Below, piece after piece: positions 4,957 through 26,347 of a stretch of DNA of 32,000 nucleotides. The position numbers and the translations under genes were made by a program. Every line of letters starts with the position of its first letter. The first letter of the stretch is position 1. The notes below the pieces were generated by a model that saw nothing but the letters and a program-made list of their open reading frames with translations, did not search any database and was not told the DNA's origin. The DNA comes from an uncultured Pelagibacteraceae bacterium (lineage in GTDB: Bacteria > Pseudomonadota > Alphaproteobacteria > Pelagibacterales > Pelagibacteraceae): NCBI GenBank assembly GCA_902517865.1, contig CABYDT010000001.1:91862-123861 (forward strand), in the 5' to 3' direction.

Positions 4957-5072
4957 GCCTGGCAACGACCTACTCTCCCATACCTTAAGGCAAAGTACCA
5001 TCGGCGCTGAAGGACTTGACTTCCGAGTTCGAGATGGGATCGGGTATTGCCCCTTCGCAATAATTACCAGGC
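4957..5072 (-). rRNA. rrf: 5S ribosomal RNA
   Basis: The reverse complement reads GCCTGGTAATTATTGCGAAGGGGCAATACCCGATCCCATCTCGAACTCGGAAGTCAAGTCCTTCAGCGCCGATGGTACTTTGCCTTAAGGTATGGGAGAGTAGGTCGTTGCCAGGC. It carries the conserved blocks CCGAACTC.GAAGT.AA, AGCGCCGATGGTA, GAGAGTAGG and TGCCAGGC, and the termini pair as helix I. No 23S or 16S gene is present in the window. Confidence 0.92.
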
Positions 5073-6064: not shown

Positions 6065-6141
<77 letters not shown>

Positions 6142-6928: not shown

Positions 6929-6931
6929 AAG

Positions 6932-10418: not shown

Positions 10419-10419
10419 C

Positions 10420-14459: not shown

Positions 14460-15145
14460 AATAGTTTTCTTTTTTTTAATAATTTATCAAGTATGTCTTT
14501 GTCCCTTTTAGTATCCATGCACTGCCAAAAGCCATGATGTTTAAAAGCAGACATTTGCTTCTTTTTTGCTAAATTTTCAAACGGCTCTCTTTCTAAATAA
14601 GTTTTGTCATTCTTTATTGTCTTTAAAAATTCTGGCTCTATTACGAAAAAACCTCCGTTAATCCATCCTTCATCCAGCTTTGACTTTTCTTTAAAATAAT
14701 TAACTCTTGATCCGGTAATTTTAATTGCCCCGAATCTAGCCGGAGGACGAACTGCTGTTAAAGTAAATAGTTTTTTATTTTTTTTATGAAATTTAAGCAA
14801 TTTATTAAGATTAACATTAGATAATCCATCTCCATAAGTCATCATAAACCTATCTTTTCCTAATATTTTTTTAAGTCTCTTAAGTCTTCCCCCGGTCATA
14901 GTATTTTTTCCAGTTTCAATGAGATTAATATTCCAATCAAAAAATTTTTTTCTAAAGTATTTTTTTATAACGTGGCCCTTGTAACCAAGTGCAATATAAA
15001 AATTTTTGTAACCATATTTAGAGTAATGTTTCATTATATGATAAATTATTGGCTTATTTCCAACTTTGATCATAGGCTTCGGTATAGTTTTTGTATATTC
15101 CGATATACGCGTCCCCATCCCCCCAGCTAAAATTACAACCTTCAT
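14456..15145 (-). CDS. rfbF: Glucose-1-phosphate cytidylyltransferase
   Basis: 229 aa. MKVVILAGGMGTRISEYT..IPKPM, GYKG.VIK.YF, TGGRLKR, TYGDG, RFGA, INGGFFV and HGFWQCMDT.RDK are collinear with Salmonella RfbF as recalled. It is shorter than RfbF through an internal deletion and a shorter tail. Confidence 0.85.
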   Translation of the reverse strand: MKVVILAGGMGTRISEYTKTIPKPMIKVGNKPIIYHIMKHYSKYGYKNFYIALGYKGHVIKKYFRKKFFDWNINLIETGKNTMTGGRLKRLKKILGKDRFMMTYGDGLSNVNLNKLLKFHKKNKKLFTLTAVRPPARFGAIKITGSRVNYFKEKSKLDEGWINGGFFVIEPEFLKTIKNDKTYLEREPFENLAKKKQMSAFKHHGFWQCMDTKRDKDILDKLLKKRKLF

Positions 15146-16254
15146 AATTTTATAAATTCCTTTTTAACTTTTTGTAAATCCTTGGGTCTAGGCAAAATAT
15201 TTTCCGATTTATTGACTTTTATACTCACCTCTAAGAATGCAGAATCTTTACTATTTAAGAAATTTTTTATTGTATATTTCAACTGTTTCTTATCAGAAAT
15301 ATAAAAATATTTTTTATAACCTAAGGATTTAGCAAATAACTTAATGTTGATATTTTCAATATTTGTTGCTTGACCTCCTACAGACTCATGAGAGTAATTA
15401 TTTACTAAAATATACTTTAGATTTTTTTTAGAATAGTTTCTAATTGATACTGCAGATCCTAAATGCATCAAGAAAGATCCATCACCGTCTACACAAATTA
15501 TTTTTTTCTTTGTTTTTAACGAGTATCCAAGACTTACTGAGGAAGTGTGACCCATACCACCAACCATATAAAAGGGTTTTATATCCGATTTAAGTTTATC
15601 TATTTGGCTATAAATTTCTCTTGATAAATAACCTGTAGATGAAATTATTTTATGACTTTTATTAACATTTTCCAGTAAAATTTTAATAAAAGAGGATCTA
15701 GTTAAAAATTTAGGGTTTATAAATTTCTGTTTGCTTTTAATATTTTTTTTATTTTTTAGCGTATTATTTTTAATTAAACATGCAACTATTTGATTCTTAT
15801 TTCTAGAGTAAGAAATAAGACTTTTTAATTTTTTTAAATCATTTTTTTTTTCTATCTCACAATTTTTTATACCACATAGCGATAGTATTTTTTTTGTAAT
15901 TGCGCCTTGCGCTAAGTGTTGTGGCTCATCATTTAATTTAGGGGCACCTCTCCATCCAATGATTAACAACATTGGAATTTTATATACTTTTTTATGAGCA
16001 ATAGATATTAGCGGATTTATTGAATTGCCCAATCCAGAATTCTGCATGTAAACAGCTGGAATTTTATTGGTTGATAAATAATATCCAATAGCTGTACCAA
16101 CTGCCGAACCTTCGTTTGTTAATATTAAATTTTTAATATTTTTTTTAGTGTCGATTAGATTAGTAAAATTTTTTAACACAGAGTCAGGTACACCTGCAAA
16201 AAAATTTATTTTATTTTTCTTTAATACTAATAACAGCTCTTCCGCAAAAATCAT
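15142..16254 (-). CDS. ppd: Phosphonopyruvate decarboxylase (TPP-dependent)
   Basis: 370 aa. The N-terminal pyrimidine-binding domain has FFAGVPDS.LK and NEG.AVG.A.GYYL. IIGWRG.P...DEPQH..QG is the Ppd/sulfopyruvate-decarboxylase signature. The C-terminal TPP motif is DGDGSFLMH...VNN. It sits next to PEP mutase genes. Confidence 0.85.
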   Translation of the reverse strand: MIFAEELLLVLKKNKINFFAGVPDSVLKNFTNLIDTKKNIKNLILTNEGSAVGTAIGYYLSTNKIPAVYMQNSGLGNSINPLISIAHKKVYKIPMLLIIGWRGAPKLNDEPQHLAQGAITKKILSLCGIKNCEIEKKNDLKKLKSLISYSRNKNQIVACLIKNNTLKNKKNIKSKQKFINPKFLTRSSFIKILLENVNKSHKIISSTGYLSREIYSQIDKLKSDIKPFYMVGGMGHTSSVSLGYSLKTKKKIICVDGDGSFLMHLGSAVSIRNYSKKNLKYILVNNYSHESVGGQATNIENINIKLFAKSLGYKKYFYISDKKQLKYTIKNFLNSKDSAFLEVSIKVNKSENILPRPKDLQKVKKEFIKL

Positions 16255-16934
16255 TTTGTAAAAATAGTTTTATGTTTATTTTTTTCCCAATAATACTTTC
16301 TATCGGTTATACGCCAGTGTCGTCCATATTGATTGTCTAAAAATTCTTTATAATAGACAGGAATTTTAATCCGCATGCCAAAATAATTAATATCCTTTAA
16401 ATATTTAAAATACTTTAATTTTGTTTTAAAACCTGCATCAACATAAAATATATTAATTTTTTCTAATTTTAATTTTAATGCTTTGAAAAATTCGCTAGTA
16501 AAACTAAAAAATTTTATTATAGAACTATATCTGCCTTTATAGTTTTTGCCTTCAGCTAATGCATAAATTAATCTACAAAAAATATTTCTCATAGCATAGT
16601 GTCTAATAAAACAATACCTGCCAGTTTTGTCTATTTCATGAAAATTTATGTCTATTTTTCGATTGTTACCCTTTTCAAAGGATAAAAGGTAATTCTTGCC
16701 AAAAGACTTGGTTTTTAATTTAAATCCTTTGCTTATAAATGCTGAAACGATCTTATCTTTATTTTTGATTTGCCAGTAACCTATATCAATATCATTATCC
16801 CAAGGAATTAAAGATTTATCTCTCACAATGCCTAATAATGTTCCATAGCATATCCAATAATTTAATTTTAAATGACTCAAGATTTGAATACATTCTCTAA
16901 AATTTGGGTCATTAATTAAAAAATTTTTTTTCAA
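16251..16934 (-). CDS. LicD-family phosphotransferase (phospho-alcohol or phosphonate transfer to glycan)
   Basis: 227 aa. YWICYGTLLGIVRDKSLIPWDNDIDIGY is the LicD nucleotidyltransferase-fold signature. An ATGA overlap couples it translationally to ppd. Confidence 0.8.
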   Translation of the reverse strand: MKKNFLINDPNFRECIQILSHLKLNYWICYGTLLGIVRDKSLIPWDNDIDIGYWQIKNKDKIVSAFISKGFKLKTKSFGKNYLLSFEKGNNRKIDINFHEIDKTGRYCFIRHYAMRNIFCRLIYALAEGKNYKGRYSSIIKFFSFTSEFFKALKLKLEKINIFYVDAGFKTKLKYFKYLKDINYFGMRIKIPVYYKEFLDNQYGRHWRITDRKYYWEKNKHKTIFTK

Positions 16935-17007
16935 AACTATATATATATTAATTTGAATTTATTTGATAATTATATAATAGACTAAACATATAATTAAAAG
17001 ATCGAAA

Positions 17008-18318
17008 ATGCCATCTCAAAAAAAAACAGTCTATGTTGCAATGAGTATAGATCTAGTACATCCAGGACACTTAAATATTATTAATAGAGCATCAAAGCTA
17101 GGTAAAGTCGTAGTTGGTTTACTGACTGATAAAGCAATTGCAAGTTTTAAAAGAGTTCCGATCATGGAATACGAAGATAGATACAAAGTTGTTTCAGCAA
17201 TTAAAAATGTTTCTAAAGTTGTAAAACAAACAACCCATGATTACAGACCTAATCTTAGAAAGATAAAACCGGAGTTTGTAGTTCATGGTGATGATTGGAA
17301 ACAAGGAGTTCAAAAAAAAATTAGAAACGATGTAATTCGTGAATTAAAAAAATGGAATGGTAAATTAATTGAATTTCCATATACAAAAGGAGTATCAACA
17401 ACAAAATTAATTGAAACAGAGAGAAAAATTGGTACGACGCCTGACATAAGAAGGAAAAGACTATTAAGATGTTTAAACTCAAGATCTTTAACAAAATTTA
17501 TTGATATTCATAGTGGATTAAGTGGATTGATAGTTGAAAAAACAAGAATTAATACCGAGGGTAAAATTGAAGAGTTTGATGGTATGTGGGCTAGCTCGTT
17601 AACAAATACTGCTGTCAAAGGTAAGCCTGATATTGAGGCAGTTGATTTAACCGAGAGGTTGCAGCTAATTCACGAGGTATTAGAAGTTACAACAAAACCA
17701 ATAGTATTTGATGCAGACACTGGAGGAAAAATCGAACATTTTATTTTTACAGTAAGAACTCTTGAAAGATTAGGGGTATCGGGTGTTATAATTGAAGATA
17801 AAACGGGTCTAAAAAAAAATTCATTGCTAGGTAAAAAGGTTTTTCAAAAACAAGAAAGTATTAAAAATTTTTCAAAGAAAATTGCAGCCGGTACGAAGGC
17901 TAAAACAACAAATGAATTTTTTGTCATTGCAAGAATAGAAAGTTTAATACTTAAAAAAAGTTTAAAAGACGCTATAACGAGAGCCAAAGCCTATATTAAT
18001 GCAGGCGCTAGTGCAATTATGATTCATAGTATAAATAAAAGTCCAAAAGAAATTTTTAAGTTTGCTAAAATTTATAATAATTTAAAAAATCGAAAACCCT
18101 TAATTGTGGTGCCAACAACCTATAATCATGTAAAGGAAAAAGAATTCGAAAAAAATGGTATAAATATGATTATCTACGCTAATCATTTATTTAGAAGTAC
18201 ATACCCAAATATGAAGACTACAGCTGAGAGTATTTTAAGGAATAAAAGATCTAAAGAGTCAGAAAAAAATTTGATGTCTATTAACGAGATTTTAAATTTA
18301 ATACCTGGAACTAAATAA
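17008..18318 (+). CDS. pepM: Bifunctional cytidylyltransferase / phosphoenolpyruvate phosphomutase (Fom1-like fusion), copy 1
   Basis: 436 aa. The N-terminal HxGH cytidylyltransferase domain has VYVAMSIDLVHPGHLNIINRA and VVHGDDW. The C-terminal ICL/PEPM domain has the PEP-mutase-diagnostic EDKxxxxxNS motif (IIEDKTGLKKNSL), plus FDADTGG and ARIES. Confidence 0.9.
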   Translation: MPSQKKTVYVAMSIDLVHPGHLNIINRASKLGKVVVGLLTDKAIASFKRVPIMEYEDRYKVVSAIKNVSKVVKQTTHDYRPNLRKIKPEFVVHGDDWKQGVQKKIRNDVIRELKKWNGKLIEFPYTKGVSTTKLIETERKIGTTPDIRRKRLLRCLNSRSLTKFIDIHSGLSGLIVEKTRINTEGKIEEFDGMWASSLTNTAVKGKPDIEAVDLTERLQLIHEVLEVTTKPIVFDADTGGKIEHFIFTVRTLERLGVSGVIIEDKTGLKKNSLLGKKVFQKQESIKNFSKKIAAGTKAKTTNEFFVIARIESLILKKSLKDAITRAKAYINAGASAIMIHSINKSPKEIFKFAKIYNNLKNRKPLIVVPTTYNHVKEKEFEKNGINMIIYANHLFRSTYPNMKTTAESILRNKRSKESEKNLMSINEILNLIPGTK

Positions 18319-18320
18319 TT

Positions 18321-19055
18321 CTACAAGGCTCCGCCTTTGTTTGAAACACTATCATTTTTATCATTAAAATATTCTAAATAAATATTAGAGTTTTTGCTTT
18401 CTGCATAAGTGTAATAAAGAATTCTTCTATCATTATCGGATTTATTTTTGTCAGATTTATGTGGACACAGATGGCTAAAAAATAATAAATCACCCGGTTT
18501 CAAGTTAACTTTTTCAAAATTAAGTTTTTCAGCATATTCCTTTTTTAGAAATGGAGTACCATTATTTTCTGTATTTTTTATGAGTTCATCAAATTTTAGA
18601 AAATCAGCTTTAGCAACTTCAAGTGTACCATTTTCATCATTGCAGGAGTCAAGTGCAACCAAAACATTGAGAAAAAAATTTGAGTATTTATGCCAGCCTC
18701 TATGTCTTGAACCATCTTTTTTTTCAAAATAAAAAATACCATCATAATGAGCTAAAAATCCCTCTCCGCCTTTTGGCTTTGCATTAAACTTATCTTTAAA
18801 AATAACGAATTCTTTTTTGAATAAACCCTTAATGTACCTTAAAATTTGATTATTTAGGTCATTTAAATATTCCCCTTTATTATAAAGTTTTTCTATCCTT
18901 CTTAGCTTATTGTTTTTGTCGTAATATTTTTCAACATTATTTGCGTTTTGAATTTCAATGTTTAGTTCATCAATAAAATCTTTTGAAAAAAAGTTTTCTA
19001 CTTTAAAATAACCTTTATCCTTAAAAATATTAATTAGATTTGATTTTTCTTTCAT
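18321..19055 (-). CDS. Fe(II)/2-oxoglutarate dioxygenase, phytanoyl-CoA dioxygenase (PhyH) family
   Basis: It has an N-terminal F.DKGYFKVENFF, an HxD motif (LAHYDG), a distal His (SHLCPHKS) and Arg (DRRILYY). The ORF track starts at 19109. The Met at 19055 (MKEKSNL...) reduces the overlap with the upstream gene to 26 nt and is the likelier start. Confidence 0.7.
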   Translation of the reverse strand: MKEKSNLINIFKDKGYFKVENFFSKDFIDELNIEIQNANNVEKYYDKNNKLRRIEKLYNKGEYLNDLNNQILRYIKGLFKKEFVIFKDKFNAKPKGGEGFLAHYDGIFYFEKKDGSRHRGWHKYSNFFLNVLVALDSCNDENGTLEVAKADFLKFDELIKNTENNGTPFLKKEYAEKLNFEKVNLKPGDLLFFSHLCPHKSDKNKSDNDRRILYYTYAESKNSNIYLEYFNDKNDSVSNKGGAL

Positions 19056-19908
19056 AAATATAATTATATGTTTGGGAAAACTCCTCGGTAACAGGTATGT
19101 TCTTTTCAAGTAACTTTTTAGTTAGTTTAAAACCTGAATTAACCATAATACTATTTACTCTTTTCCTTTGTTCTTTAAATTTTTCATTCACCTCAACCAA
19201 TATACTTTTTATTTTTTTATTCTTTAAAGTTTTTTTGCCACCTTCTAAAATTAAGTGCTCAATACCATCAACATCAATCTTGATATAATCAGGTATTTTC
19301 ATTATTTCTTTTTCTACTAAAAAATCAATAGTTGTGCCGAGAATTTTATAACTATTCCCGATATTAAATTTTTTTCCTTCAAAATTATATTTTTCTCCGT
19401 ATGTGTTTAATGACAAGCCTTCTTCAAATTTAAGTTCTTTCATCTCCAAAAATTTATTTTTTTTATCTGTTAATGGAAGAGTATTAATATTTATTTTGTT
19501 TACCATGTTATTTAAAAATATGTTCCTGCTTAAAACCCTTAAATTACTAGAAGATGGTTCAAATGCAAAAATTTGAATTTTATTTTTATGTACAATCGAA
19601 GCGTAAATTGAATACACACCGATGTTAGCTCCTATATCCCAAAAAATAATATTTTTTTTTGTCTTAAAATTATTTATCCATTCTATAGTATCAGGTTCTT
19701 TATCAATAAAAGTTCTTACTCTCCATTCAGTAAGTTGATTTGGCGTAAAAAATAAAACTTTTTTTCCTTTAATATAGATAGTTTTTATAGCATCTAAGTT
19801 GATAAAGTAATTAATCCAAGTAATAAAATTTCTATTGGTAAAAAAATAAAATAGTTTATTAATCGTTTTTAAAATAATGTAGATTAGATAAGAAAACGTT
19901 TTTAACAT
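19030..19908 (-). CDS. FkbM-family SAM-dependent methyltransferase
   Basis: 292 aa. FWDIGANIGVYSIYAS, FAFEPSSSN and IKIDVDGIEHLILEGG are the Methyltransf_21/FkbM signatures. Confidence 0.8.
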   Translation of the reverse strand: MLKTFSYLIYIILKTINKLFYFFTNRNFITWINYFINLDAIKTIYIKGKKVLFFTPNQLTEWRVRTFIDKEPDTIEWINNFKTKKNIIFWDIGANIGVYSIYASIVHKNKIQIFAFEPSSSNLRVLSRNIFLNNMVNKININTLPLTDKKNKFLEMKELKFEEGLSLNTYGEKYNFEGKKFNIGNSYKILGTTIDFLVEKEIMKIPDYIKIDVDGIEHLILEGGKKTLKNKKIKSILVEVNEKFKEQRKRVNSIMVNSGFKLTKKLLEKNIPVTEEFSQTYNYIYERKIKSN

Positions 19909-19927
19909 ATAATAAGTTTTTTATATT

Positions 19928-21007
19928 ATGAAAGATGCAATTAAAACAATAAAATTAAAAACAATTTTAAAACAAGACAATTTTTTTATCATTTCAGGTA
20001 AAAACTCTTTTCATAAATCGAAATTTAAAGAAAATTTTAAACTTAACGGTAAAAAAAATATCTTTTTAAAAAAAAATAATTATCCTGATGTTAATGAGTT
20101 AAAAAAAATACTATTTAAAGTAAATACTCATAAACCAAAATTTATTGTAGCAATAGGTGGTGGCAGTGTCTTGGATTATGCAAAACTTGTGTCTTGTTTA
20201 TATAAAGATAAAAATATTAATTACTCTAAATTAGTCAAATATAAATTCAAAAAAAAATTAAAAGTCATAGCAATACCAACTACTGCCGGATCAGGGGCAG
20301 AGATAACACCTAACTGCGTTCTATATAGAAATAAAAAGAAACTAAGTATCCACAACAAATATTTGAAACCAGATTTCTTTTATTTAAATTATAAATTATT
20401 AAAAGGGTTATCTAAAATTTATAGATCTTCTGCAGCTTACGATGCGCTTTCTCAAGCAATTGAGTCATTACTTGCAAAAAAATCTAGCCCCAAAAGTAGG
20501 CATCATTCAAAAAAATCTATCCAGCTTATTTTGAAAAATATTAGAAAATATCTGAGAACAGGTGATAAGAATAGTACAACCAAAATGCTCAATGCAGCAA
20601 ATCTCTCGGGAAAGGCAATCGCAATTACAGAAACAACTGCTCCGCATGCTCTTTCTTATGGTTTTACAGTATTTTATAACGTTCCCCATGGGCACGCAGT
20701 TGTTTTGACTTTGCCAATTATATTAAATTTTAATTTTGAAAAAATAATTTCAAATAAAAATAAGTATAAAAAAAGTTTACGTAAATATAACATGTTATTT
20801 AAAATTTTTAATGTTAAAAATATTTCCCAGCTTAATCGTAAATTAAATTCAATATTTCGAATTTATAGATATAATTTTAAACAAAGAAAAAAATTTTCTA
20901 TACCAAAGATACTTTTTGGAATAAATGAGAGAAGATTAAAAAATAATCCAGTAGATATTAATAAAGAAAATTTGAAGAAAATTTTAGAAAAAGTCAGAGC
21001 TAAATAG
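19928..21007 (+). CDS. Iron-containing (group III) alcohol dehydrogenase; candidate phosphonoacetaldehyde reductase (FomC/PhpC-like)
   Basis: 359 aa with IAIGGGSVLDYAKLVS, IAIPTTAGSGAEITP and the metal ligands in APHALSYGF..VPHGHAV. The function is inferred from context between pepM/ppd and the radical SAM gene. Confidence 0.7.
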   Translation: MKDAIKTIKLKTILKQDNFFIISGKNSFHKSKFKENFKLNGKKNIFLKKNNYPDVNELKKILFKVNTHKPKFIVAIGGGSVLDYAKLVSCLYKDKNINYSKLVKYKFKKKLKVIAIPTTAGSGAEITPNCVLYRNKKKLSIHNKYLKPDFFYLNYKLLKGLSKIYRSSAAYDALSQAIESLLAKKSSPKSRHHSKKSIQLILKNIRKYLRTGDKNSTTKMLNAANLSGKAIAITETTAPHALSYGFTVFYNVPHGHAVVLTLPIILNFNFEKIISNKNKYKKSLRKYNMLFKIFNVKNISQLNRKLNSIFRIYRYNFKQRKKFSIPKILFGINERRLKNNPVDINKENLKKILEKVRAK

Positions 21008-21077
21008 ATTTTAGTTCAAATACCCTTTATGTTTTTTTCTATTATACCTACTAAATTAATGTTATAAGTTTATTCTA

Positions 21078-21584
21078 ATGAAAATAGATAATGTTTTATT
21101 AAAAAATTATTTAAAAATTACTTTTGGTGTACTATTAGTTATTATTGTTTCAAGATTTATTCCGCACCCGCCGAATTTTACAGCTTTAATTGCGCTAAGC
21201 TTCTATGTTCCAGCAATACTAGGCAAAAAATATATACCAACCTTATTGCTGAGTTTTGTTATTACAGATCTTATAATTGGTTTTCACCAAATAATATTAT
21301 TTACATGGGGTAGCGTAATTTTAATTGGTCTTGTTTCGTCATATTTTAGTTTTTCTTTAAAAAGTAGAATTTCAGGGGCTTTTCTATCAGCATGCTTATT
21401 TTTTTTGATAACAAATTTCGGTGTATGGTTGACAGGAGTATACGGATTAACAATTGATGGTTTGCTTTTGTGCTATACAATGGCAATACCATTTTTTGGA
21501 TATACTTTAGTATCTACATTGTTGTACTCAGGAATAATTGAGATAGTAAATTCGCAATATAAAAAAATAAAAAAAATAATCTAA
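21078..21584 (+). CDS. Small polytopic membrane protein, DUF6580-like putative transporter (ECF S-component-like)
   Basis: 168 aa with 5-6 hydrophobic helices. The N-terminal SRFIPHPPNFTALIALSFY resembles the R.IPHP.NF.P motif that I associate with the DUF6580 family of putative transport proteins. This is recalled from memory and not verified. Confidence 0.45.
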   Translation: MKIDNVLLKNYLKITFGVLLVIIVSRFIPHPPNFTALIALSFYVPAILGKKYIPTLLLSFVITDLIIGFHQIILFTWGSVILIGLVSSYFSFSLKSRISGAFLSACLFFLITNFGVWLTGVYGLTIDGLLLCYTMAIPFFGYTLVSTLLYSGIIEIVNSQYKKIKKII

Positions 21585-21591
21585 TAAATAA

Positions 21592-23112
21592 TTAAGTCTG
21601 CCTTTGAAAATGGTGTGACTCTTCAGAGTTTTGGCCGTATTTATATTTGAACCTATCTATGTCTCTTTCTTTAAGTAACAAGTTAGCTTTCATGTTTGTC
21701 TCGTTAACAAACTTTTCGAATTCCTCAGGTCCATTGAAACCGTCAACTTTAATTAGTGATGATCTTAACATCATATCGTCCATAGTTCTTCCATTCCACC
21801 AAAGTTTTTCTTTCATAACTTGTCTATAAATTGGAGTACCTGGTAAAGGATTTAATATGGCGAAACCGAAGCTATCTGCTCCACTGTTCATTGCAAATTT
21901 TATTGTATTTTGAATTTCTTCATAAGTCTCGCCTGGATAACCTAAAATCCAAAATGTATGTACTAACATTCCCGCTTTTTTAGCTCTTTCAATTGCAGGG
22001 TACACAGTATTTAAATCTAGTCTTTTATTTATAAGATGATCTAAGACTCTTTGATTTCCACTCTCACATGCTAAAGTTATTTGATAGCAACCACCGTCTG
22101 CCATTGCCTGATACATTTCTTGTTGGGTTCTTAAGTGATAATTAACTTTTGTTCCATTAGGTGTACACCAAGGAAGACCAACTTTTTCTAATTCTTTACA
22201 TAGAGCATAAAGATTTTTTTTATTAACAGTCAAAGTATCGTCTAAAAATTGTATTTCGCCGATATTAAATTGTTCAACATCTTCTTTAATTTCGGTCATT
22301 ATATTTTCTGTAGTCCTCCATCTAACACTACTGCCCCACATTTGAGGTGTTGTACAAAAAGTACATTTTTCTGGGCAACCCCTTGAGCACATAACACTTA
22401 GAACTCTATTCGATCTTGCTTTCGCTGATTGGAATGCTCCTATTTTAAAATATGACTCCATATTAACAAGATGTCTTGCTGGTCGAGGTAATAAATTTAC
22501 GTCATGCTTTTCACTTTTTTGATTTATTAAATATTTTTTGTGCCCGATTTTTTTAATAAGACCTGGCACGTTTGAATAATTATCAGTTTTATTAATTATG
22601 CAATCCACTAGTTGTGTAATTGGTTTTTCACCTTCACCTGCCATTGCAAAATCAATGCAAGGATTCTCCAGGTCCTCAATATAATCTGGTAAGTTAGATC
22701 TTGGATCATTAACTGCAAATTGATAGTCTATTGCTGCGTTAGAAATGTGATTACCTCCCAGTATAACTTTAATATTGCTATTAACTTCCTTTGCAAGCTT
22801 TGCGATATTGTGTGCTGAATTTAAAAAATTGGAGAATAGGACTGATACTGCGAGGACATCTGGTGAAAAGTCTGATATTACTTTTTTGATCTGTTCATCA
22901 GATTGACCAATCATCACTTTCTTCTTTTTTTTGTCGACTATGATTCTGTGGTCCCAACCTTCTAAAGCAGTATCATGTATTTTGACAATATGACCGTGCT
23001 GTTCAAGCATGCCGGCAATTAACATAACTCCCAAGGAAGGTTGAATTCTATTAACACCATCGTCCATACCTTTGAGGTTTGGCGTCATTAAAAGTACTCT
23101 GGCTTTTTTCAT
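21592..23112 (-). CDS. Cobalamin-binding-domain radical SAM enzyme (class B; putative methyltransferase, Fom3/PhpK-like by context)
   Basis: 506 aa. The N-terminal B12-binding-like Rossmann domain begins RVLLMTPNL...PSLGVMLIAGMLEQHGHIVKIHD. The radical SAM cluster motif is CPEKCTFC (CxxxCxxC). Confidence 0.8.
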   Translation of the reverse strand: MKKARVLLMTPNLKGMDDGVNRIQPSLGVMLIAGMLEQHGHIVKIHDTALEGWDHRIIVDKKKKKVMIGQSDEQIKKVISDFSPDVLAVSVLFSNFLNSAHNIAKLAKEVNSNIKVILGGNHISNAAIDYQFAVNDPRSNLPDYIEDLENPCIDFAMAGEGEKPITQLVDCIINKTDNYSNVPGLIKKIGHKKYLINQKSEKHDVNLLPRPARHLVNMESYFKIGAFQSAKARSNRVLSVMCSRGCPEKCTFCTTPQMWGSSVRWRTTENIMTEIKEDVEQFNIGEIQFLDDTLTVNKKNLYALCKELEKVGLPWCTPNGTKVNYHLRTQQEMYQAMADGGCYQITLACESGNQRVLDHLINKRLDLNTVYPAIERAKKAGMLVHTFWILGYPGETYEEIQNTIKFAMNSGADSFGFAILNPLPGTPIYRQVMKEKLWWNGRTMDDMMLRSSLIKVDGFNGPEEFEKFVNETNMKANLLLKERDIDRFKYKYGQNSEESHHFQRQT

Positions 23113-23168: not shown

Positions 23169-23843
23169 TTACTTCTCAATATACATAGGCTTTTTAAGGT
23201 TTTTAAAAGATTTAGCTTTCTTTTTAACCTTTTTAAGAAATGTATTAATAACTCTAGTTTCGCCTTTGTAAAAAATACCGCTTGTACCTACCCCTTGATA
23301 ATTATCTAAAAGAATTAAGCCCCCTTTAATTATCCTTGGATAAAAATGATTTAAAACACATTCAGTTGATTCGACAAAATCTATATCGACGTTTAGTAAA
23401 ATAATTTTTTCTTTTGGTCTTTTTTTTAGAAATTCAGGCACTGTTTTGAGCACGTTTCCCTTAATTAATTGAAAATTTTTAATATTTTTTTTCTTAAATA
23501 ATGTTTCGAGTTTTTTTTTTGAAAAAGAATTACCAGCAGTTTTCATCCAATGTTTTCTTTGTTTTTTCTCATTTTTATACTTGGTATCTGGGTACGGCTC
23601 TTCAAAAACATCAAAGCCAATGAGTTTTGAATTCTCCTTATTAAATAATTTACGCATCATTGCAAATCTTGAAAAAGATGTGCCCTTAAATACACCCGCT
23701 TCTACTATTGATCCACTTAAGTGCGATACTTTTTTAAAAGCTTCATAATGTACCAAAAATTTCGATAATCTATCTTTTGTCATTAAAAGATTAAAATCAG
23801 TCTCTGAGTTGTACATTTTTTGGATATTAAGATAATTAACCAT
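23169..23843 (-). CDS. TylF/macrocin-O-methyltransferase-family SAM-dependent methyltransferase
   Basis: 224 aa. GSIVEAGVFKGTSFSRFA and LLNVDIDFVESTECVLNHFYPRIIKGGLILLDNY fit the TylF-like class I methyltransferase pattern, including metal-binding Asp residues. Confidence 0.7.
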   Translation of the reverse strand: MVNYLNIQKMYNSETDFNLLMTKDRLSKFLVHYEAFKKVSHLSGSIVEAGVFKGTSFSRFAMMRKLFNKENSKLIGFDVFEEPYPDTKYKNEKKQRKHWMKTAGNSFSKKKLETLFKKKNIKNFQLIKGNVLKTVPEFLKKRPKEKIILLNVDIDFVESTECVLNHFYPRIIKGGLILLDNYQGVGTSGIFYKGETRVINTFLKKVKKKAKSFKNLKKPMYIEK

Positions 23844-24598
23844 TAGAAAATTCGTTTAGCTTTAAGATAATCTTGCTTGTTATCAATTTCAATCCATTTA
23901 TTACTTTTAGTATAGTAATAATCTAAATTATTTTTACTCATAAATATATTTAAGGGATTTTCCCAGTTTTTTTTTAGATTTTTCTTCTTACTTAAAAATT
24001 TGTTAAGGATACAAATTAATTTTTTTCTATGACCGTTATCTAATCGTATAATACCGACAGCTTCACCTAAAAATTTACTACTTTTCAAAACATCCTGTTT
24101 AGCAAATTTTTTATCTATCATATATTTAATTTTTTTGCTTTTATTAATAAATACTTTGGCACACTCTTGATCTGAAATATCTCCTTTTCCAACCAATGCC
24201 AGATTAAATTTTTTTGACTTTAAAAAATGTTTTAGTATTTTAAAATCTATCATAATATCACCATCTAAAAATATGCATCTTGAATTAATTTTTTTTAAGC
24301 CTAAAAGCAGTGAGTAAGAATTTCCTTTAGAAATATAATTTTTATTTTTTGTGATTTTTATATTTATGTTATTTTTATAAGATTTTGTGATTTTTTTAAA
24401 TAAAAAATCTTTATATCCCAATACAAGAGTAAAATTTTTTGCACCAACTTTCATAAATTTATCAATATTGCTTTCCAAAATTGACTTATTTGAAATTTGT
24501 AAAAGACTTTTTGGTTTTTTTGTATAGTTAGATATTCTCGATCCCTTCCCGGCAGCGAGAATTATTATATGCGTTGACTTGCAGAGTCTTTTATCCAT
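23843..24598 (-). CDS. LicC/PntC-like nucleotidyltransferase (candidate phosphonate or phospho-alcohol cytidylyltransferase)
   Basis: 251 aa. IIILAAGKGSRISNYTKKPKSLLQISNKSILE is the NTP_transferase G-rich loop. The size and layout resemble LicC. Confidence 0.7.
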   Translation of the reverse strand: MDKRLCKSTHIIILAAGKGSRISNYTKKPKSLLQISNKSILESNIDKFMKVGAKNFTLVLGYKDFLFKKITKSYKNNINIKITKNKNYISKGNSYSLLLGLKKINSRCIFLDGDIMIDFKILKHFLKSKKFNLALVGKGDISDQECAKVFINKSKKIKYMIDKKFAKQDVLKSSKFLGEAVGIIRLDNGHRKKLICILNKFLSKKKNLKKNWENPLNIFMSKNNLDYYYTKSNKWIEIDNKQDYLKAKRIF

Positions 24599-25494
24599 GC
24601 TCTAATCATTGTTCTTTTTAATGGAGCTAATGTTTCTTTATTTTTAAAAATCTCTTCACTATTATAAAAATCAGAGAAAGATGTTCTTCCATGCAATACT
24701 TGATTATCAATTGTTAGAAGTATATCTCCTGGACTTAAATTAAATCTAATTTGATTTTCAGGGGCCTCCAATAAAGAGTCCAAAACATCTAGTGAGTATA
24801 ATTGTAATGGGCTTAAAGGTTTTTTAACTTTTTCATGAGCAGACACCATATAGGGTCTTAAATATCTAAACGTTGGTTCTTTTTTTTTATTAAATTCAAT
24901 AATTGGGGATTTATAAAAACTTTCTGATATACCTCTCTTTTCCCAATAAAAATTTTTCCTCAATATACTAAGTGCAAGTTTAAATTTTTTCTTAAGAATT
25001 TTGTATATCTCTTTACCATTAACCAAGATAGTTTCTCCTCCTATTTCGGCTCTAGAAACGCAACTTAAAATTAAATAATCCCATTTGATTTTAAGATTAA
25101 CATTATCTGTATGTATACTACCGCCTTCTCTGGTTTGATGATATCTGCCACCTGAGTTAATTGATAAATTTCTATCTCGATCAAAGACATAAACCAATTT
25201 ATCCCCCTTTTCATTTTGGACAATTTTTTTTCCAAGAATTAACGATACAGCTTTTGTAATATCTATAATTGTATCCGGCGCTAAATATTTATTTTTATAG
25301 TTAAATTGCAAGACAACACCTAACTTGCCATGTTTGAGTTTGTTTTTGCATGATTCGACATAATTCTTAAAACTCTTATTAGAGAGAATTGTATTTACGT
25401 TATCTTTATCTTTATTCTTATCTAGGCTTTTAAGTAATTTCAAAATATTAGTATTTGGACGTGAAAAATCTATATAGCGAATATTTTTTTTCAT
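24565..25494 (-). CDS. Fe(II)/2-oxoglutarate dioxygenase, TauD/TfdA (gamma-butyrobetaine hydroxylase-like) family
   Basis: 309 aa. It has an HxD in GGSIHTDNV and a distal His-Arg in DNQVLHGRTSF. The overall length and spacing are TauD-like. Confidence 0.7.
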   Translation of the reverse strand: MKKNIRYIDFSRPNTNILKLLKSLDKNKDKDNVNTILSNKSFKNYVESCKNKLKHGKLGVVLQFNYKNKYLAPDTIIDITKAVSLILGKKIVQNEKGDKLVYVFDRDRNLSINSGGRYHQTREGGSIHTDNVNLKIKWDYLILSCVSRAEIGGETILVNGKEIYKILKKKFKLALSILRKNFYWEKRGISESFYKSPIIEFNKKKEPTFRYLRPYMVSAHEKVKKPLSPLQLYSLDVLDSLLEAPENQIRFNLSPGDILLTIDNQVLHGRTSFSDFYNSEEIFKNKETLAPLKRTMIRAWIKDSASQRI

Positions 25495-25531: not shown

Positions 25532-26347
25532 TCATAATTTGTCCCTTACAGAATTAACAAAACCTTTAAATAAACAAATATATAAACCACCTAAAAAAAT
25601 TAAAGAGGTTTTAAAGCAAATTAGAAAGAATAATACATCACTAACATAAATTTTATTGTGAATAATTTCAAATACTAAAACTAATAATATGATATCAACC
25701 CAAGAAGATCTATCATTTAATATATTATCAAATAAAAATTTAAATATTCTTAAAATTGGAGAAAATTTCATTATTTTACTTCTATTTTTTTTTCGGTTTA
25801 TTTTTTTTCCACTTTTATAATGTTCATACATAGTGATTAAGTATGTAAAATTTTTTAAATCAAAAAATTTAAAAGATAAGTAAATTAAAATTGAGTATAA
25901 ATAGACAATATCTGACGTATGATTAAATAAGTAAATAGATAAAGCTATTACAAATAAATTGTAATTTACTAACCCCGTCCATATATCCAAAACATGACCA
26001 AGATTAGATTGTTTTTTATTTACTGAAGCTAGTAGACCGTCAGTCCAGTCTAATAAACCGATAGAAAAAAAAATTATAATACCGATAAATTTTAATTTAT
26101 CTTCGCCAAAACTTAAGAAAATCGTACCAAAAAAAACAAGGATAGAATTTGTAATTGAAACTGAATTAGGAGTAATAGGGGTTTTTTGAAATAAAAAAAC
26201 CAATATAGAGCTTAATTCAATAAATAACCTAGACTTTAAATACGAATAAGGAGATCTAAAAAAACTTTGTAGATCAATATCGTAATCTTTCGAGTGTCTA
26301 CTTAAAGATCTTTTATAATTAATAGCTCTAATTTTTGCAAAATTCAT
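25532..26347 (-). CDS. CDP-alcohol phosphatidyltransferase-family membrane protein (variant motif)
   Basis: 271 aa and polytopic. DWTDGLLASVNKKQSNLGHVLDIWTG fits DG(x2)A(R/S)(x8)G(x3)D(x3), with the final Asp replaced by Gly. Confidence 0.6.
   Translation of the reverse strand: MNFAKIRAINYKRSLSRHSKDYDIDLQSFFRSPYSYLKSRLFIELSSILVFLFQKTPITPNSVSITNSILVFFGTIFLSFGEDKLKFIGIIIFFSIGLLDWTDGLLASVNKKQSNLGHVLDIWTGLVNYNLFVIALSIYLFNHTSDIVYLYSILIYLSFKFFDLKNFTYLITMYEHYKSGKKINRKKNRSKIMKFSPILRIFKFLFDNILNDRSSWVDIILLVLVFEIIHNKIYVSDVLFFLICFKTSLIFLGGLYICLFKGFVNSVRDKL

Follow-up and report, generated by a model that had tools for sequence, protein, structure and literature searches.

A probable locus for two-branch CMP-phosphonate surface tailoring, with a Fom3-like C-methylase, in a Pelagibacteraceae glycan island

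Within the 32,000-nucleotide stretch of Pelagibacteraceae DNA analysed here (the window), the region from 14.4 to 28.6 kb most likely serves the tailoring of the cell surface with CMP-activated phosphonates along two branches, with a C-methylase resembling Fom3, an interpretation to which we give somewhat better than even chances. The locus is located inside a surface-glycan island of a low-GC marine bacterium, in an HVR2-like position adjoining a 5S rRNA gene. All five open reading frames named in the preliminary description, namely the cytidylyltransferase (CyTase)-PEP mutase PepM1, the phosphonopyruvate decarboxylase Ppd, the Fe-alcohol dehydrogenase (Fe-ADH), the cobalamin-binding radical SAM enzyme (rSAM) and LicD, are present at the coordinates given there (Table 1). 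However, its reading covers only half of the system; a second, amino branch (PepM2 and a PhnW-like aminotransferase) had been overlooked. The same region also holds a PntC/LicC-like nucleotidyltransferase, two Fe/2-oxoglutarate dioxygenases (TauD/FrbJ-like and PhyH), two methyltransferases (FkbM and TylF), a CDP-alcohol-type membrane transferase (CDP-OH_P_transf) and a DUF6580 membrane protein, all likewise missed at first reading. The four 'Fom'-type genes are spread over four transcription units on both strands, and the window carries the Fe-ADH and the aminotransferase together, with one Ppd and one rSAM.

Table 1. Features of the window, with the family matches or motifs recorded for each.
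Feature	Coordinates	Strand	Matches and remarks
5S rRNA gene	4957..5071	-	Rfam RF00001, 93.9 bits; glycan-island edge; context, outside the pathway
tRNA-Val	5139-5213
tRNA-Met	6065-6141
Phosphonopyruvate decarboxylase (Ppd)	15142..16254	-	TIGR03297 equivalog, 362.7 bits (cutoff 312.5); TPP_enzyme_N + TPP_enzyme_C
LicD-family phosphotransferase	16251..16934	-	PF04991, 47.6 bits (cutoff 22.6)
Fom1-type bifunctional CyTase-PEP mutase (PepM1), 'hydroxy-branch' type	17008..18318	+	TIGR02320, 379 bits (cutoff 319.55); PF01467, N-terminal
PhyH-family Fe/2OG dioxygenase	18321..19109	-	PF05721, 55 bits; HxD...H motif in sequence
FkbM-family methyltransferase	19030..19908	-	PF05050, 57 bits; TIGR01444, 76 bits
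Group III Fe-alcohol dehydrogenase (Fe-ADH)	19928..21007	+	PF00465 + PF25137
DUF6580 six-helix membrane protein	21078..21584	+	PF20221, 103 bits; convergent with rSAM
Cobalamin-binding radical SAM enzyme (rSAM)	21592..23112	-	PF02310 + PF04055; CPEKCTFC motif
TylF-family methyltransferase	23169..23843	-	PF05711, 53 bits
MobA/LicC-like nucleotidyltransferase	23843..24598	-	PF12804 + PF00483
TauD-family Fe/2OG dioxygenase	24565..25494	-	PF02668, 68 bits
Divergent CDP-alcohol phosphatidyltransferase-family membrane protein	25532..26347	-	PF01066, 34.5 bits (cutoff 22)
Second CyTase-PEP mutase (PepM2), 'amino-branch' type	26350..27651	-	TIGR02320, 354 bits (cutoff 319.55); PF01467; EDKTGVKRNS
Divergent class V aminotransferase related to AEP transaminase (PhnW/AepZ)	27648..28631	-	overlaps PepM2 start

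This grouping is not due to chance, as the same gene set surrounds homologous rSAM genes at more than 20 independent loci in several phyla, and the exact two-module architecture is seen again on contigs from separate marine metagenome samples, among them several from Tara Oceans. The four-enzyme set recognized earlier is real: the CyTase-PepM/Ppd/Fe-ADH/B12-rSAM cassette is conserved in marine Gammaproteobacteria MAGs, Nanoarchaeota, Planctomycetia and Rhodospirillales and in close relatives of the locus. The rSAM itself belongs to a large marine family that adjoins PEP mutase in Pelagibacteraceae, Gammaproteobacteria and Nanoarchaeota, and its orthologs (50-91% identical) neighbour CyTase-PepM and Ppd in SAGs of Pelagibacteraceae and MAGs of Gammaproteobacteria as well as in Nanoarchaeota, Planctomycetia and Rhodospirillales. 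PepM is no more than 10 kb from the rSAM in 12 of 18 fully flanked loci; against this, none was found within that distance in L010, L015, L022, L028, L030 and L033.

This context suggests that the rSAM is a phosphonate-pathway C-methyltransferase, Fom3-like in its logic. Its top NCBIfam matches are Sden_1168 (245.6 bits, cutoff 575), HpnJ (130) and PhpK (125); that the rSAM stays far below each named family's curated cutoff counts against the assignment, as does the fact that SD_1168, its best curated family match and an enzyme of a phosphonate cluster, is itself without a known physiological reaction. A published similarity network places HpnJ, the next-best curated match, in the same cluster as Fom3 (PMC9204698), and relatives of the rSAM carry the JGI label 'phosphonoacetaldehyde methylase', the KEGG name of Fom3. 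Grouping with non-phosphonate enzymes, which the preliminary description had set out as the alternative, is disfavoured by the embedding of the rSAM in phosphonate clusters and by its match to SD_1168.

Ppd, present in a single copy and 42-52% identical to the Ppd genes adjoining rSAM orthologs, is presumably common to both branches. In the hydroxy branch, PepM1 contains the EDKTGLKKNS motif and the HPGH signature, its N-terminal domain shares 57% identity over 131 aa with the Fom1 CyTase domain (PDB 5x3d), and the protein is 56-58% identical to PepM of Fe-ADH-type Gammaproteobacteria clusters. The Fe-ADH is predicted to be a FomC/PhpC-like phosphonoacetaldehyde reductase. Its best NCBIfam match is TIGR03405 (phosphonate-associated Fe-ADH; 125 bits, under the cutoff of 423.7), and orthologs sharing 27-40% identity with it are direct or close neighbours of Ppd in L009, L011, L012, L023, L024, L026, L027, L034 and L045, whereas in L021 the ortholog adjoins PepM. 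Most members of its family have Gln at the position that we take to be that of the first His metal ligand, and characterized enzymes are distant from both the Fe-ADH and the aminotransferase; these observations count against the overall interpretation. The PhyH dioxygenase is a probable phosphonate hydroxylase, with methylphosphonate hydroxylase PhnY* as its best NCBIfam match (73.6 bits, under the cutoff of 500); it is 45-51% identical to PhyH of Fe-ADH-type clusters versus 29-37% to that of aminotransferase-type clusters. Its true start is probably near 19055, and gene calls on metagenome contigs give it 244 aa. The FkbM methyltransferase is kept at 95% identity in L039-L043.

In the amino branch, PepM2 shares 48% identity with the Fom1 CyTase domain and 55-59% with PepM of Pelagibacteraceae aminotransferase-type loci. 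The aminotransferase best matches TIGR03301 (PhnW-AepZ; 67 bits, under the cutoff of 360.8), the PDB entries it matches best are 6pd1, in its aminotransferase part, and AEP transaminases, and its orthologs show a weak Aminotran_5 match; it is 51-56% identical to genes adjoining PepM, Ppd or rSAM in 12 loci. The nucleotidyltransferase is a candidate PntC-type phosphonate cytidylyltransferase, as its top PDB match is the Tde1415 PntC-AEPT fusion (6pd1, 1.3e-10), followed by LicC (1jyk), with a weak match to the Sden_1164 family. The TauD dioxygenase, a second probable phosphonate hydroxylase, best matches, in the PDB, FrbJ (5eqn, 2.6e-13) and then gamma-butyrobetaine dioxygenase and TmpA, with weak matches to NCBIfam BBOX and TmpA. 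TylF also accompanies the rSAM in L005 (61% identity) and L031 (52%). The presence of two Fe/2OG dioxygenases and two methyltransferases points to further tailoring.

Which branch supplies the rSAM substrate bears directly on the product proposed earlier, hydroxypropylphosphonate. The rSAM family is paired with either Fe-ADH or aminotransferase. In the window the rSAM is co-oriented with PepM2 and the aminotransferase and not with the Fe-ADH, and it is probably co-transcribed with the amino branch; most Pelagibacteraceae loci have an rSAM ortholog (62-71% identical) paired with an aminotransferase and no Fe-ADH. Therefore, the route through CMP-HEP (HEP, 2-hydroxyethylphosphonate) may not apply here, and hydroxypropylphosphonate becomes one of several possible products. 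In the rSAM tree, by contrast, the basal branches all come from Fe-ADH-type clusters, and the window rSAM groups, with 100% bootstrap, with that of L034, a pure Fe-ADH-type cluster. A comparison of residues between aminotransferase-type and Fe-ADH-type rSAMs revealed none that cleanly splits the two, and thus no OH/NH2 switch. The rSAM is under strong purifying selection; between the window and L039 its gene shows 57 nucleotide differences, all synonymous, and no amino-acid differences, and the aminotransferases share only 61% amino-acid identity. Because Ppd was not found in L016, L019 and L037, the substrate could also lie upstream of the aldehyde. Possible substrates are thus the hydroxy compound, the amino compound or a shared precursor.

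As the preliminary description stated, LicD is translationally coupled to ppd, its stop codon overlapping the ppd start codon as ATGA when read directly. It matches the Mf1 cholinephosphotransferase weakly over the full length and has a homolog in L031 (34% identity), and we infer that it moves the phosphonyl group from CMP-phosphonate to a glycan. The CDP-OH_P_transf protein is a candidate second CMP-phosphonate transferase with a lipid or lipid-linked acceptor; counting against this, it lacks the canonical catalytic Asp, the fourth Asp of the motif DxxDGxxAR...GxxxDxxxD being missing from each of the five homologs, and the window protein has Ser in place of Arg. The transferase varies by locus: the window and L031 have both LicD and CDP-OH_P_transf, L005 and L026 have CDP-OH_P_transf, and L045 has a TagF-like Glyphos_transf; all three families use CDP/CMP-activated donors. 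Wherever a PEP mutase was detected at an rSAM locus, it carries a fused nucleotidyltransferase or has one encoded adjacently. All phosphotransferases identified beside the cassette belong to the three families just named, and HppE and FomD never join them; this fits the retention of the CMP-phosphonate as a surface-polymer donor, and to this extent the earlier proposal of an activated donor is supported.

We propose the following pathway, in which all enzymatic steps after Ppd, the methylation, its substrate and the acceptors are predicted from gene identity and context. Both PEP mutases would form phosphonopyruvate, which the single Ppd would convert to phosphonoacetaldehyde. In the hydroxy branch (PepM1, Fe-ADH, PhyH, FkbM and LicD), the aldehyde would be reduced to HEP and activated to CMP-HEP by the fused Fom1-like cytidylyltransferase; the amino branch (PepM2, PhnW-like aminotransferase, PntC-like nucleotidyltransferase, FrbJ-like TauD, TylF and the CDP-OH-type transferase) would yield a CMP-activated aminophosphonate, perhaps AEP or, if Ppd is bypassed, phosphonoalanine. 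Working like Fom3, the rSAM would use a 5'-deoxyadenosyl radical to abstract hydrogen and would transfer the methyl group of methylcobalamin to C2 of a CMP-activated 2-substituted ethylphosphonate, whether C2 bears OH or NH2, giving C3 phosphonates. The dioxygenases and methyltransferases may tailor the products further, and LicD and the CDP-OH-type transferase would place the phosphonyl groups on glycan or lipid-linked acceptors, so that no free antibiotic would be released. DUF6580, a candidate vitamin (cobalamin) importer, may supply cobalamin: it adjoins the rSAM in the window and many other loci, directly follows a TonB-dependent receptor in L034, L047, L048 and L049, and its AF2 model (pLDDT 84) gives ECF S-components as best real Foldseek matches (TM 0.52-0.59), none statistically significant.

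In contrast to the fosfomycin cluster, which has HppE and FomD, the locus has neither: a domain search of window ORFs of at least 80 aa detected no cupin (HppE, HEPD, MpnS) or DUF402 (FomD) domain, in agreement with the preliminary description, and none was detected in L034, L037, L039 and L045, so this is not a fosfomycin cluster. Counting against the overall interpretation, phosphonate production by SAR11 itself is, according to Acker et al. 2022, unconfirmed. HEP-decorated glycans are already known (PMC8942020, PMC5649143), and as surface chemistry only a methylated derivative of them would be new. Taken together, two routes to carbon-phosphorus compounds and a very strongly conserved B12 radical enzyme in one glycan island suggest that the surfaces of abundant marine microbes carry modified, possibly methyl-branched, phosphonates.

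The five ORFs named in a preliminary description of this AT-rich DNA (G+C content about 27%), namely a cytidylyltransferase (CyTase)-PEP mutase fusion, a phosphonopyruvate decarboxylase (Ppd), a group III Fe-dependent alcohol dehydrogenase (Fe-ADH), a B12-binding radical SAM enzyme (rSAM) and a LicD-family protein, are all present where they had been placed, and the phosphonate system to which they belong is about twice the size given there. Two CyTase-PEP mutase fusions were found, PepM1 on the hydroxy side of the locus and PepM2 on the amino side. The PF01467 domain covers residues 15-136 of PepM1; this N-terminal domain is 57% identical over 131 amino acids to the CyTase domain of Fom1 (PDB 5x3d), and that of PepM2 is 48% identical to it over 129 amino acids. 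Both proteins thus have the bifunctional architecture of Fom1, with an N-terminal PF01467 domain and a Fom1-like CyTase. The rSAM has a class B architecture, consisting of a B12-binding domain, a radical SAM core and a CxxxCxxC motif. The LicD-family protein, which gives a weak match to Mf1 along its full length (50.8 bits), is translationally coupled to Ppd, as had been proposed: the TGA stop of licD overlaps the ATG of ppd and can be read directly as ATGA. When compared with curated profiles, the four ORFs that had been likened to Fom1, Fom2, FomC and Fom3 fared differently, since the PEP mutase and Ppd score above their family cutoffs, whereas the matches of the Fe-ADH and the rSAM fall below theirs.

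Features of the phosphonate locus, its borders and homologous loci (positions refer to the window unless a locus is named; scores in bits against the family cutoff)
Feature	Position	Strand	Characteristics
5S rRNA gene	4957-5071	-	edge of glycan island
tRNA-Val	5139-5213	-	
tRNA-Met	6065-6141	+	
Ppd	15142-16254	-	TIGR03297 equivalog, 362.7 against 312.5 (passes)
LicD-family protein	16251-16934	-	PF04991, 47.6 against gathering cutoff 22.6; only the N-terminal motif region aligns
PepM1	17008-18318	+	PF01467; TIGR02320, 379 against 319.55 (passes); motif EDKTGLKKNS
PhyH-family dioxygenase	18321-19109	-	best curated match methylphosphonate hydroxylase PhnY*
FkbM methyltransferase	19030-19908		
Fe-ADH, group III	19928-21007	+	best curated family phosphonate-associated Fe-ADH TIGR03405, 125.4 against 423.7 (fails)
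DUF6580 membrane protein	21078-21584	+	convergent with rSAM
rSAM	21592-23112	-	B12-binding PF02310, radical SAM core PF04055; motif CPEKCTFC
TylF-family methyltransferase	23169-23843	-	
MobA/LicC-like nucleotidyltransferase	23843-24598	-	PF12804, 34.7 against 27; best PDB match PntC-AEPT fusion 6pd1, 1.3e-10
TauD-family dioxygenase	24565-25494	-	nearest solved relative phosphonate hydroxylase FrbJ, 5eqn, 2.6e-13
CDP-alcohol phosphatidyltransferase-family membrane protein, divergent	25532-26347	-	Pfam, 34.5 against 22
PepM2	26350-27651	-	TIGR02320, 354 against 319.55 (passes); motif EDKTGVKRNS
Class V aminotransferase	27648-28631	-	best matches AEP transaminases and the aminotransferase half of the Tde1415 PntC-AEPT fusion
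LegC-family aminotransferase	28638-29813	-	TIGR04181, 438 against 420
DUF6580 homolog, locus L034	3667-4158		
DUF6580 homolog, locus L047	6001-6483		
DUF6580 homolog, locus L049	6001-6498		

Two details of the hydroxy side deserve mention. The Fe-ADH carries the motif YDALSQAIES, and most members of its subfamily have Gln where the first His ligand is expected, His being retained only in loci L026 and L027; we take the position of this Gln to be that of the first His metal ligand. The PhyH ORF as listed begins with a TTG at 19109 and overlaps the FkbM gene by 80 bases (19030-19109), and a later start giving 244 amino acids, as in metagenome gene calls, is probably the real one.

The additional half of the system lies upstream of the rSAM gene, where six tightly packed, co-oriented minus-strand genes encode the class V aminotransferase, PepM2, the CDP-alcohol (CDP-OH)-type protein, TauD, the nucleotidyltransferase and TylF, and the rSAM gene follows 56 bp downstream of TylF. 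The aminotransferase is divergent: its best family, TIGR03301, gives 67.2 bits against 360.8, so that the cutoff of the 2-aminoethylphosphonate (AEP) transaminase equivalog is not reached. The nucleotidyltransferase has the PF12804 cytidylyltransferase domain that relates it to PntC. The CDP-OH-type protein departs from the canonical DxxDGxxAR...GxxxDxxxD motif: none of the five homologs compared has the fourth Asp, and the window protein also carries Ser where the motif has Arg. It may be a transferase that has simply diverged, or one whose chemistry has changed. In total, the locus encodes two PEP mutases, one Ppd, one reductase-type and one transaminase-type enzyme for a carbonyl phosphonate, three candidate phosphonate nucleotidyltransferases, two transferases of families that use CDP- or CMP-activated donors, and a single rSAM. 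PhyH, FkbM and DUF6580, which the preliminary description had likewise passed over, are encoded between the two PEP mutases. PepM2 and the aminotransferase form a module that lacks a separate Ppd, and this aminotransferase could therefore use phosphonopyruvate instead of the aldehyde. The Fom1/Fom2/FomC/Fom3-like set that had been recognized is not a unit: the four genes belong to four different transcription units, with the rSAM gene physically within the amino-branch operon and the Fe-ADH gene on the opposite strand. The window showed neither a cobalamin riboswitch nor any other regulatory RNA, and a scan for promoters and terminators was uninformative in such AT-rich DNA (109 sites against 108 expected).

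The remainder of the window is a surface-glycan island, with GT2 and GT4 glycosyltransferases, a Wzy-like polymerase, several sugar-nucleotide epimerases and dehydratases, a glucose-1-phosphate cytidylyltransferase-like protein, a LegC-family aminotransferase and a PglK-like ABC flippase. The LegC-family protein suggests, by its family assignment, that the glycan may contain a legionaminic-acid-type nonulosonic sugar. The island starts directly after the 5S rRNA gene and two tRNA genes, beyond which lies pntAB; we take this variable glycan island beside the 5S rRNA gene to correspond in position to hypervariable region 2 of SAR11. The pntAB genes also border three other loci with rSAM relatives (L019, L031 and L037), in which PntB is 71-73% identical to that of the window. 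Together with the predominance of Pelagibacteraceae among the genome matches of the rSAM and a DUF6580 homolog annotated as Candidatus Pelagibacter, these features make an origin of the DNA in Pelagibacterales moderately probable. An identical rSAM protein is encoded on at least 23 contigs, six of which, from different marine metagenome samples including several of Tara Oceans, have the same two-module architecture. An assembly chimera of two clusters is thus ruled out, as the architecture recurs on independent contigs from several samples. The LegC gene is absent from the otherwise collinear contigs L039-L042 and L044.

No gene of these clusters is more conserved than that of the rSAM: its identity between loci is 62-91%, whereas PepM reaches 43-59%, Ppd 42-52% and Fe-ADH 27-40%. 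Between the window and a Tara contig (L039, 10001-11521), the rSAM genes differ at 57 nucleotides and at no amino acid, whereas protein identity in the same comparison is 99% for TylF, 61% for the aminotransferase and 55% for an epimerase. This pattern indicates very strong purifying selection on the rSAM within a mosaic, recombining island. Hundreds of marine relatives were found at 64-91% identity, some of them labelled by JGI as 'phosphonoacetaldehyde methylase', the KEGG name of Fom3, and a scan with one genome per species gave 33 rSAM loci, the majority of genome matches being Pelagibacteraceae single-cell genomes.

Gene contexts were derived by mapping the window proteins onto these loci and from precomputed Pfam annotations. 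In the Fe-ADH type, the order is CyTase-PepM, Ppd, Fe-ADH and rSAM, and a PhyH dioxygenase is usually present. This type occurs in Gammaproteobacteria metagenome-assembled genomes (MAGs; L009, L011, L012 and L045), in Nanoarchaeota (L021, L023 and L024), in a Planctomycetia MAG (L026), in a Rhodospirillales MAG (L027) and in L034/L035, whose rSAM is 88% identical to that of the window. The Fe-ADH ortholog lies directly after Ppd in L009, L011, L012, L023, L034 and L045, near Ppd in L024, L026 and L027, and after PepM in L021; in these ten loci, as in the window, Fom1-like, Fom2-like and FomC-like genes all accompany the rSAM gene. In the aminotransferase type, which comprises most Pelagibacteraceae loci (L002, L003, L006, L008, L013, L014 and L031), an aminotransferase takes the place between Ppd and rSAM, and PhyH is often present. 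A Ppd-less variant of this type (L016, L019 and L037) has a stand-alone cytidylyltransferase in all three loci and PepM in L016 and L037; these clusters may follow a phosphonoalanine-type route, and phosphonopyruvate-derived or phosphonoalanine-type compounds are accordingly possible as rSAM substrates. PepM lies within 10 kb of the rSAM gene in 12 of the 18 loci with full flanks, and the CyTase domains of aminotransferase-type and Fe-ADH-type loci are comparably near to Fom1 (39-68% identity). The window unites both contexts, its PepM1, PhyH and Fe-ADH resembling the genes of the Fe-ADH type and its PepM2 and aminotransferase those of the Pelagibacteraceae type.

Some of the related clusters have features of their own. 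L037, from a SAR11 single-cell genome, encodes two paralogous rSAMs (3532-5046 and 10001-11512; 69% and 75% identical to that of the window), the second of which adjoins genes for an acyltransferase, a KAS III-like enzyme and a methyltransferase. In L045, a gammaproteobacterial Tara contig, one co-oriented operon (2495-13593) runs from PFTS_polysacc through PhyH, CyTase-PepM, Ppd, Fe-ADH, an unknown ORF, an ABC ATPase and the rSAM to a TagF-like Glyphos_transf protein and PBP_like_2; with a teichoic-acid-type transferase beside a hydroxyalkylphosphonate pathway, a polymeric phosphonate is a possibility. L034/L035 have a sulfotransferase and an APS kinase alongside PepM, Ppd, Fe-ADH, PhyH and rSAM, making sulfated phosphonate or glycan chemistry possible.

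We propose that the window carries a two-branch locus for CMP-activated phosphonates with a Fom3-like C-methylase. That it serves surface phosphonate tailoring is very probable, and the rSAM in all likelihood modifies a phosphonate intermediate; we lean somewhat towards a C-methylase, and consider CMP-2-hydroxyethylphosphonate (CMP-HEP) a possible, though less likely than not, substrate for it in this organism. In fosfomycin biosynthesis, Fom1 cytidylylates HEP and Fom3 methylates C2 of CMP-HEP (PMC8158854); fusions with a nucleotidyltransferase account for about 60% of PEP mutases, and CMP-AEP is produced for surface tailoring, with LicD-like transferases encoded nearby (PMC6697681). By analogy, the hydroxy branch would lead to CMP-HEP and the amino branch to a CMP-aminophosphonate, the rSAM would add a methyl group by the mechanism of Fom3, the dioxygenases and methyltransferases would carry out further modifications of the products, and transfer of the phosphonyl groups to glycan or lipid-linked acceptors would fall to LicD and the CDP-OH-type protein. 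The Pfam search revealed no cupin or DUF402 domain in any window ORF of at least 80 amino acids, nor in L034, L037, L039 or L045; HppE, HEPD, MpnS and FomD are therefore absent at the sensitivity of Pfam, in agreement with the preliminary description, in which no HppE/Fom4, FomD or MpnS/HEPD had been recognized in the window. The donor chemistry is constant among clusters, but the transferase is not: the window and L031 have both LicD and CDP-OH_P_transf, L005 and L026 have CDP-OH_P_transf, and L045 has the TagF-like Glyphos_transf. This variation, together with the absence of HppE and FomD wherever examined, argues that the CMP donor is retained rather than a free product released. The earlier suggestion that an activated donor is kept for a surface glycan is strengthened to this extent, but it had overlooked the second, amino branch, and a glycan decorated with 2-hydroxypropylphosphonate (HPP) is now one of several possible outcomes.

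The position of the rSAM gene raises the question of whether the enzyme serves the amino branch only, acting on CMP-AEP or another aminophosphonate, for example to give a 2-aminopropylphosphonate head group, so that the Fe-ADH/HEP branch would do without it and no HPP would be made. In the window and in L039-L044, the rSAM gene is co-oriented with those for TylF, the NTP transferase, TauD, the CDP-OH transferase, PepM2 and the aminotransferase, with Fe-ADH on the opposite strand; it stands beside an aminotransferase gene, with no Fe-ADH present, in the seven aminotransferase-type loci listed and in the three Ppd-less ones, and it is paired with TauD and an NTP transferase in L005 and L010. However, in a neighbour-joining tree the rSAMs of the window and of L034, a locus with Fe-ADH and without aminotransferase, form one group with 100% bootstrap support, every basal lineage belongs to the Fe-ADH type, and aminotransferase-type rSAMs emerge inside the crown group. 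The window also has the Fe-ADH-type residue at three weakly discriminating positions, and we consider exclusive service to the amino branch unlikely.

These three noisy positions, at all of which the window has the Fe-ADH-type state, are the only differences between aminotransferase-type and Fe-ADH-type rSAMs, and a clean switch between OH and NH2 specificity was rejected for want of a discriminating residue. The occurrence of the same rSAM with either Fe-ADH or an aminotransferase, and with no residue that separates the two, fits a recognition of CMP-phosphonates that is blind to OH or NH2, or else a shared-precursor substrate. In the first case, the rSAM would recognize the CMP-phosphonate moiety and be indifferent to the group on C2. 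In the second case, it would act before the branch point, on phosphonoacetaldehyde, giving 2-oxopropylphosphonate, or on phosphonopyruvate, and Fe-ADH or the aminotransferase would then convert the methylated keto compound. Such a reading accommodates the conservation of the enzyme (62-91% identity) in both contexts, and the Ppd-less loci L016, L019 and L037 have the rSAM with an aminotransferase, the rSAM gene directly adjoining PepM in L016 and L037. Nevertheless, we know of no class B radical SAM enzyme that methylates an aldehyde carbon, and a cytidylyltransferase is encoded in every rSAM locus in which a PEP mutase was found. In addition, Fom3, the only characterized precedent, needs a CMP-activated alcohol and not an aldehyde (PMC8158854). 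Action on a precursor common to both branches is thus improbable.

Methylation at carbon of a CMP-activated phosphonate, as we prefer, must also be weighed against other radical chemistry. The enzyme might be a P-methyltransferase like PhpK or SD_1168, yielding a phosphinate, or it might catalyse another cobalamin-dependent or cobalamin-independent reaction, such as an AprD4-like dehydration or a rearrangement. Its best NCBIfam match is the Sden_1168 P-methyltransferase family (245.6 bits), PhpK scores 125 bits, its best PDB sequence match is AprD4 (6fd2, 1e-21), and SD_1168 has been described as C- or P-methylating, with its physiological substrate unknown (PMC9204698). These scores are, however, far under the respective family cutoffs of 575 and 600 bits, and membership of the SD_1168 or PhpK family was rejected on that ground; the AprD4 match is restricted to the radical SAM core (residues 204-454). 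No window gene was assigned to the families that generate the P-H (H-phosphinate) substrate needed for P-methylation, and the tight linkage to a putative vitamin importer and a TonB-dependent receptor fits genuine use of cobalamin. The second-best NCBIfam match is HpnJ, which co-clusters with Fom3 in a published similarity network (PMC9204698). Against a library of representatives at 50% identity, which returned 150 relatives, the family proper consists of a handful of clusters at 38-53% identity, beyond which lies a continuum of class B enzymes at 30-37% identity, so that sequence alone would probably be weak evidence for Fom3 orthology. Neither a structure nor a sequence of Fom3 was found in the PDB, and a query with the Fom1 CyTase domain gave only short fragments of at most 80% identity, contig L052 being a frameshifted fragment that ends before any rSAM. 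On balance, chemistry other than C-methylation seems quite unlikely.

A free, fosfomycin-like small-molecule phosphonate, which the Fom1/Fom2/FomC/rSAM-like set and the close similarity of PepM1 to the Fom1 CyTase domain might suggest, is highly improbable given that homologs of HppE, FomD and the resistance kinases are absent (a fosfomycin producer was rejected for lack of the first two), that Ppd is coupled to LicD, that the setting beside the 5S rRNA gene is one of glycosyltransferase, Wzy, flippase and sugar-nucleotide genes, and that homologous clusters have TagF-like or CDP-OH-type transferases.

For a surface locus with a cobalamin-dependent methylase, the supply of cobalamin is of interest. 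The DUF6580 gene is a neighbour of the rSAM gene both here and, with varying arrangements, in many other loci, and it comes directly after a TonB-dependent receptor in L034/L035 and L047-L049; more than 7,600 marine homologs were found, one of them annotated as Candidatus Pelagibacter. An AlphaFold model of the DUF6580 protein from a 36-sequence alignment (pLDDT 84, pTM 0.76; the single-sequence model, with pLDDT 66, was too poor) has as its best meaningful matches the ECF-transporter S-components PanT, CbiM and FolT (TM 0.52-0.59), at Foldseek E-values that are not significant. It is a reasonable idea that DUF6580 may be a BtuM-like cobalamin importer serving the rSAM. If so, these SAR11 cells would need vitamin B12. 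The SAR11 lineage is generally regarded as B12-independent.

Several elements of this system are already known. Nucleotide-activated phosphonate tailoring has been described (PMC6697681), HEP is on record both from glycans and from marine dissolved organic matter (PMC8942020, PMC5649143), and SAR11 glycan islands have been reported to contain pepM (PMC8931226). In that last study, Acker et al. (2022) put the share of surface-ocean bacterioplankton with pepM at about 15% and estimated that SAR11 could be the dominant producer of phosphonates, while stating that production by SAR11 is unconfirmed; the radical SAM enzymes, methyltransferases and nucleotidyltransferases of these clusters are not mentioned there. 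A limited search of the literature found no description of a Fom3-like enzyme in marine surface-phosphonate clusters, no report identifying phosphonate molecules made by SAR11 and nothing on propylene release from marine phosphonates. Repeta et al. are said to have found in 2016 that C3 phosphonates of marine high-molecular-weight organic matter release propylene on cleavage by C-P lyase. We regard the underlying logic, Pnt/Lic-like surface tailoring on top of a Fom-like early pathway, as known; what is new is its extension by oxidative tailoring and a radical SAM step that uses cobalamin, in what are probably the most abundant marine bacteria.

As the locus and its many relatives show, marine surface-phosphonate clusters regularly include a B12-radical SAM enzyme that is very strongly conserved. 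If it is a methylase, marine surface phosphonates would be chemically richer than AEP, HEP and methylphosphonate, with a bearing on the phosphonates that enter the dissolved organic phosphorus pool, on the hydrocarbons freed by C-P lyase, on the recognition of SAR11 surfaces by phages and grazers, and on the oceanic demand for vitamin B12. More broadly, a large share of the phosphonate-producing SAR11 cells and of other abundant marine prokaryotes might use a cobalamin radical SAM methylase to make methyl-branched C3 phosphonates on surface glycoconjugates, such as further hydroxylated or methylated derivatives of 2-hydroxypropyl- or 2-aminopropyl-phosphonate; we hold this generalization to be rather doubtful. 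Were it true, it would amount to a new class of surface chemistry, a biological source for the C3 phosphonates of marine high-molecular-weight organic matter, and a hidden B12 requirement with a dedicated uptake route through DUF6580 and the TonB receptor. For enzymology, soluble-looking Fom3-like enzymes are available from many phyla, and their natural contexts (hydroxy, amino and Ppd-less) are informatively different.

Among known systems, SD_1168 of Shewanella denitrificans (NF038361) and PhpK share the class B radical SAM architecture of the window enzyme, and SD_1168 is its best curated family over the full length, although the rSAM is not a member of that family (245.6 against 575 bits). 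A published similarity network places SD_1168 in its main cluster of methylases (PMC9204698). SD_1168 is located in a phosphonate-type gene cluster. The NTP-transferase-like gene near the rSAM gene of the window is weakly similar to the Sden_1164 family. By their description, the Campylobacter ppm-ppd neighbourhoods with radical SAM and adenylylsulfate (APS) kinase genes (GCF 385; Li and Horsman 2022, PMC8942020), listed as unclassified, have the same combination as L034/L035, the nearest relatives of the window rSAM, whereas the window has no APS kinase or sulfotransferase and instead the LicD/FkbM set and the amino-branch module. The TauD and PhyH proteins are akin to the hydroxylases FrbJ/DhpA and PhnY*/TmpA, FrbJ being the nearest solved relative of the former and PhnY* the best curated match of the latter, and both have the HxD...H iron motif; however, both fall far below the family cutoffs and stand in a biosynthetic rather than catabolic setting.

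The early fosfomycin pathway of Streptomyces (PMC8158854) is matched in the bifunctional CyTase-PEP mutase, the Ppd, the group III Fe-ADH and the cobalamin-binding radical SAM enzyme, and also in that CMP activation precedes the radical step. In contrast, the window lacks the FomD hydrolase, the Fom4/HppE epoxidase and resistance genes, distributes its genes over four transcription units within a glycan island, and adds LicD, a CDP-OH-type transferase, two dioxygenases, two methyltransferases and a complete amino branch. With the Pnt/Lic-like tailoring of surfaces by AEP (Rice et al. 2019, PMC6697681), it shares the PEP mutase-nucleotidyltransferase fusion, an AEP-transaminase-like gene, LicD-like phosphotransferases, the glycan neighbourhood and a PntC/LicC-like cytidylyltransferase whose best PDB match is Tde1415, whereas no radical SAM enzyme occurs in the pathways described in that paper, from which the term is absent. 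A further difference from the Pnt systems is the great divergence of the window aminotransferase (67 bits against a cutoff of about 360). To our knowledge, Pnt pathways also have neither an Fe-ADH (HEP) branch nor Fe/2OG hydroxylases. Finally, the polysaccharides bearing HEP or methylphosphonate, as in the exopolysaccharide of Stackebrandtia, in Nitrosopumilus and in marine high-molecular-weight dissolved organic matter (PMC8942020, PMC5649143), offer a parallel, partly from the sea, for a PepM-Ppd-Fe-ADH route to glycan-esterified hydroxyalkylphosphonates; unlike these systems, the window has no MpnS and adds a B12-radical SAM enzyme, hydroxylases and methyltransferases, and it thus predicts a product more elaborate than plain HEP.
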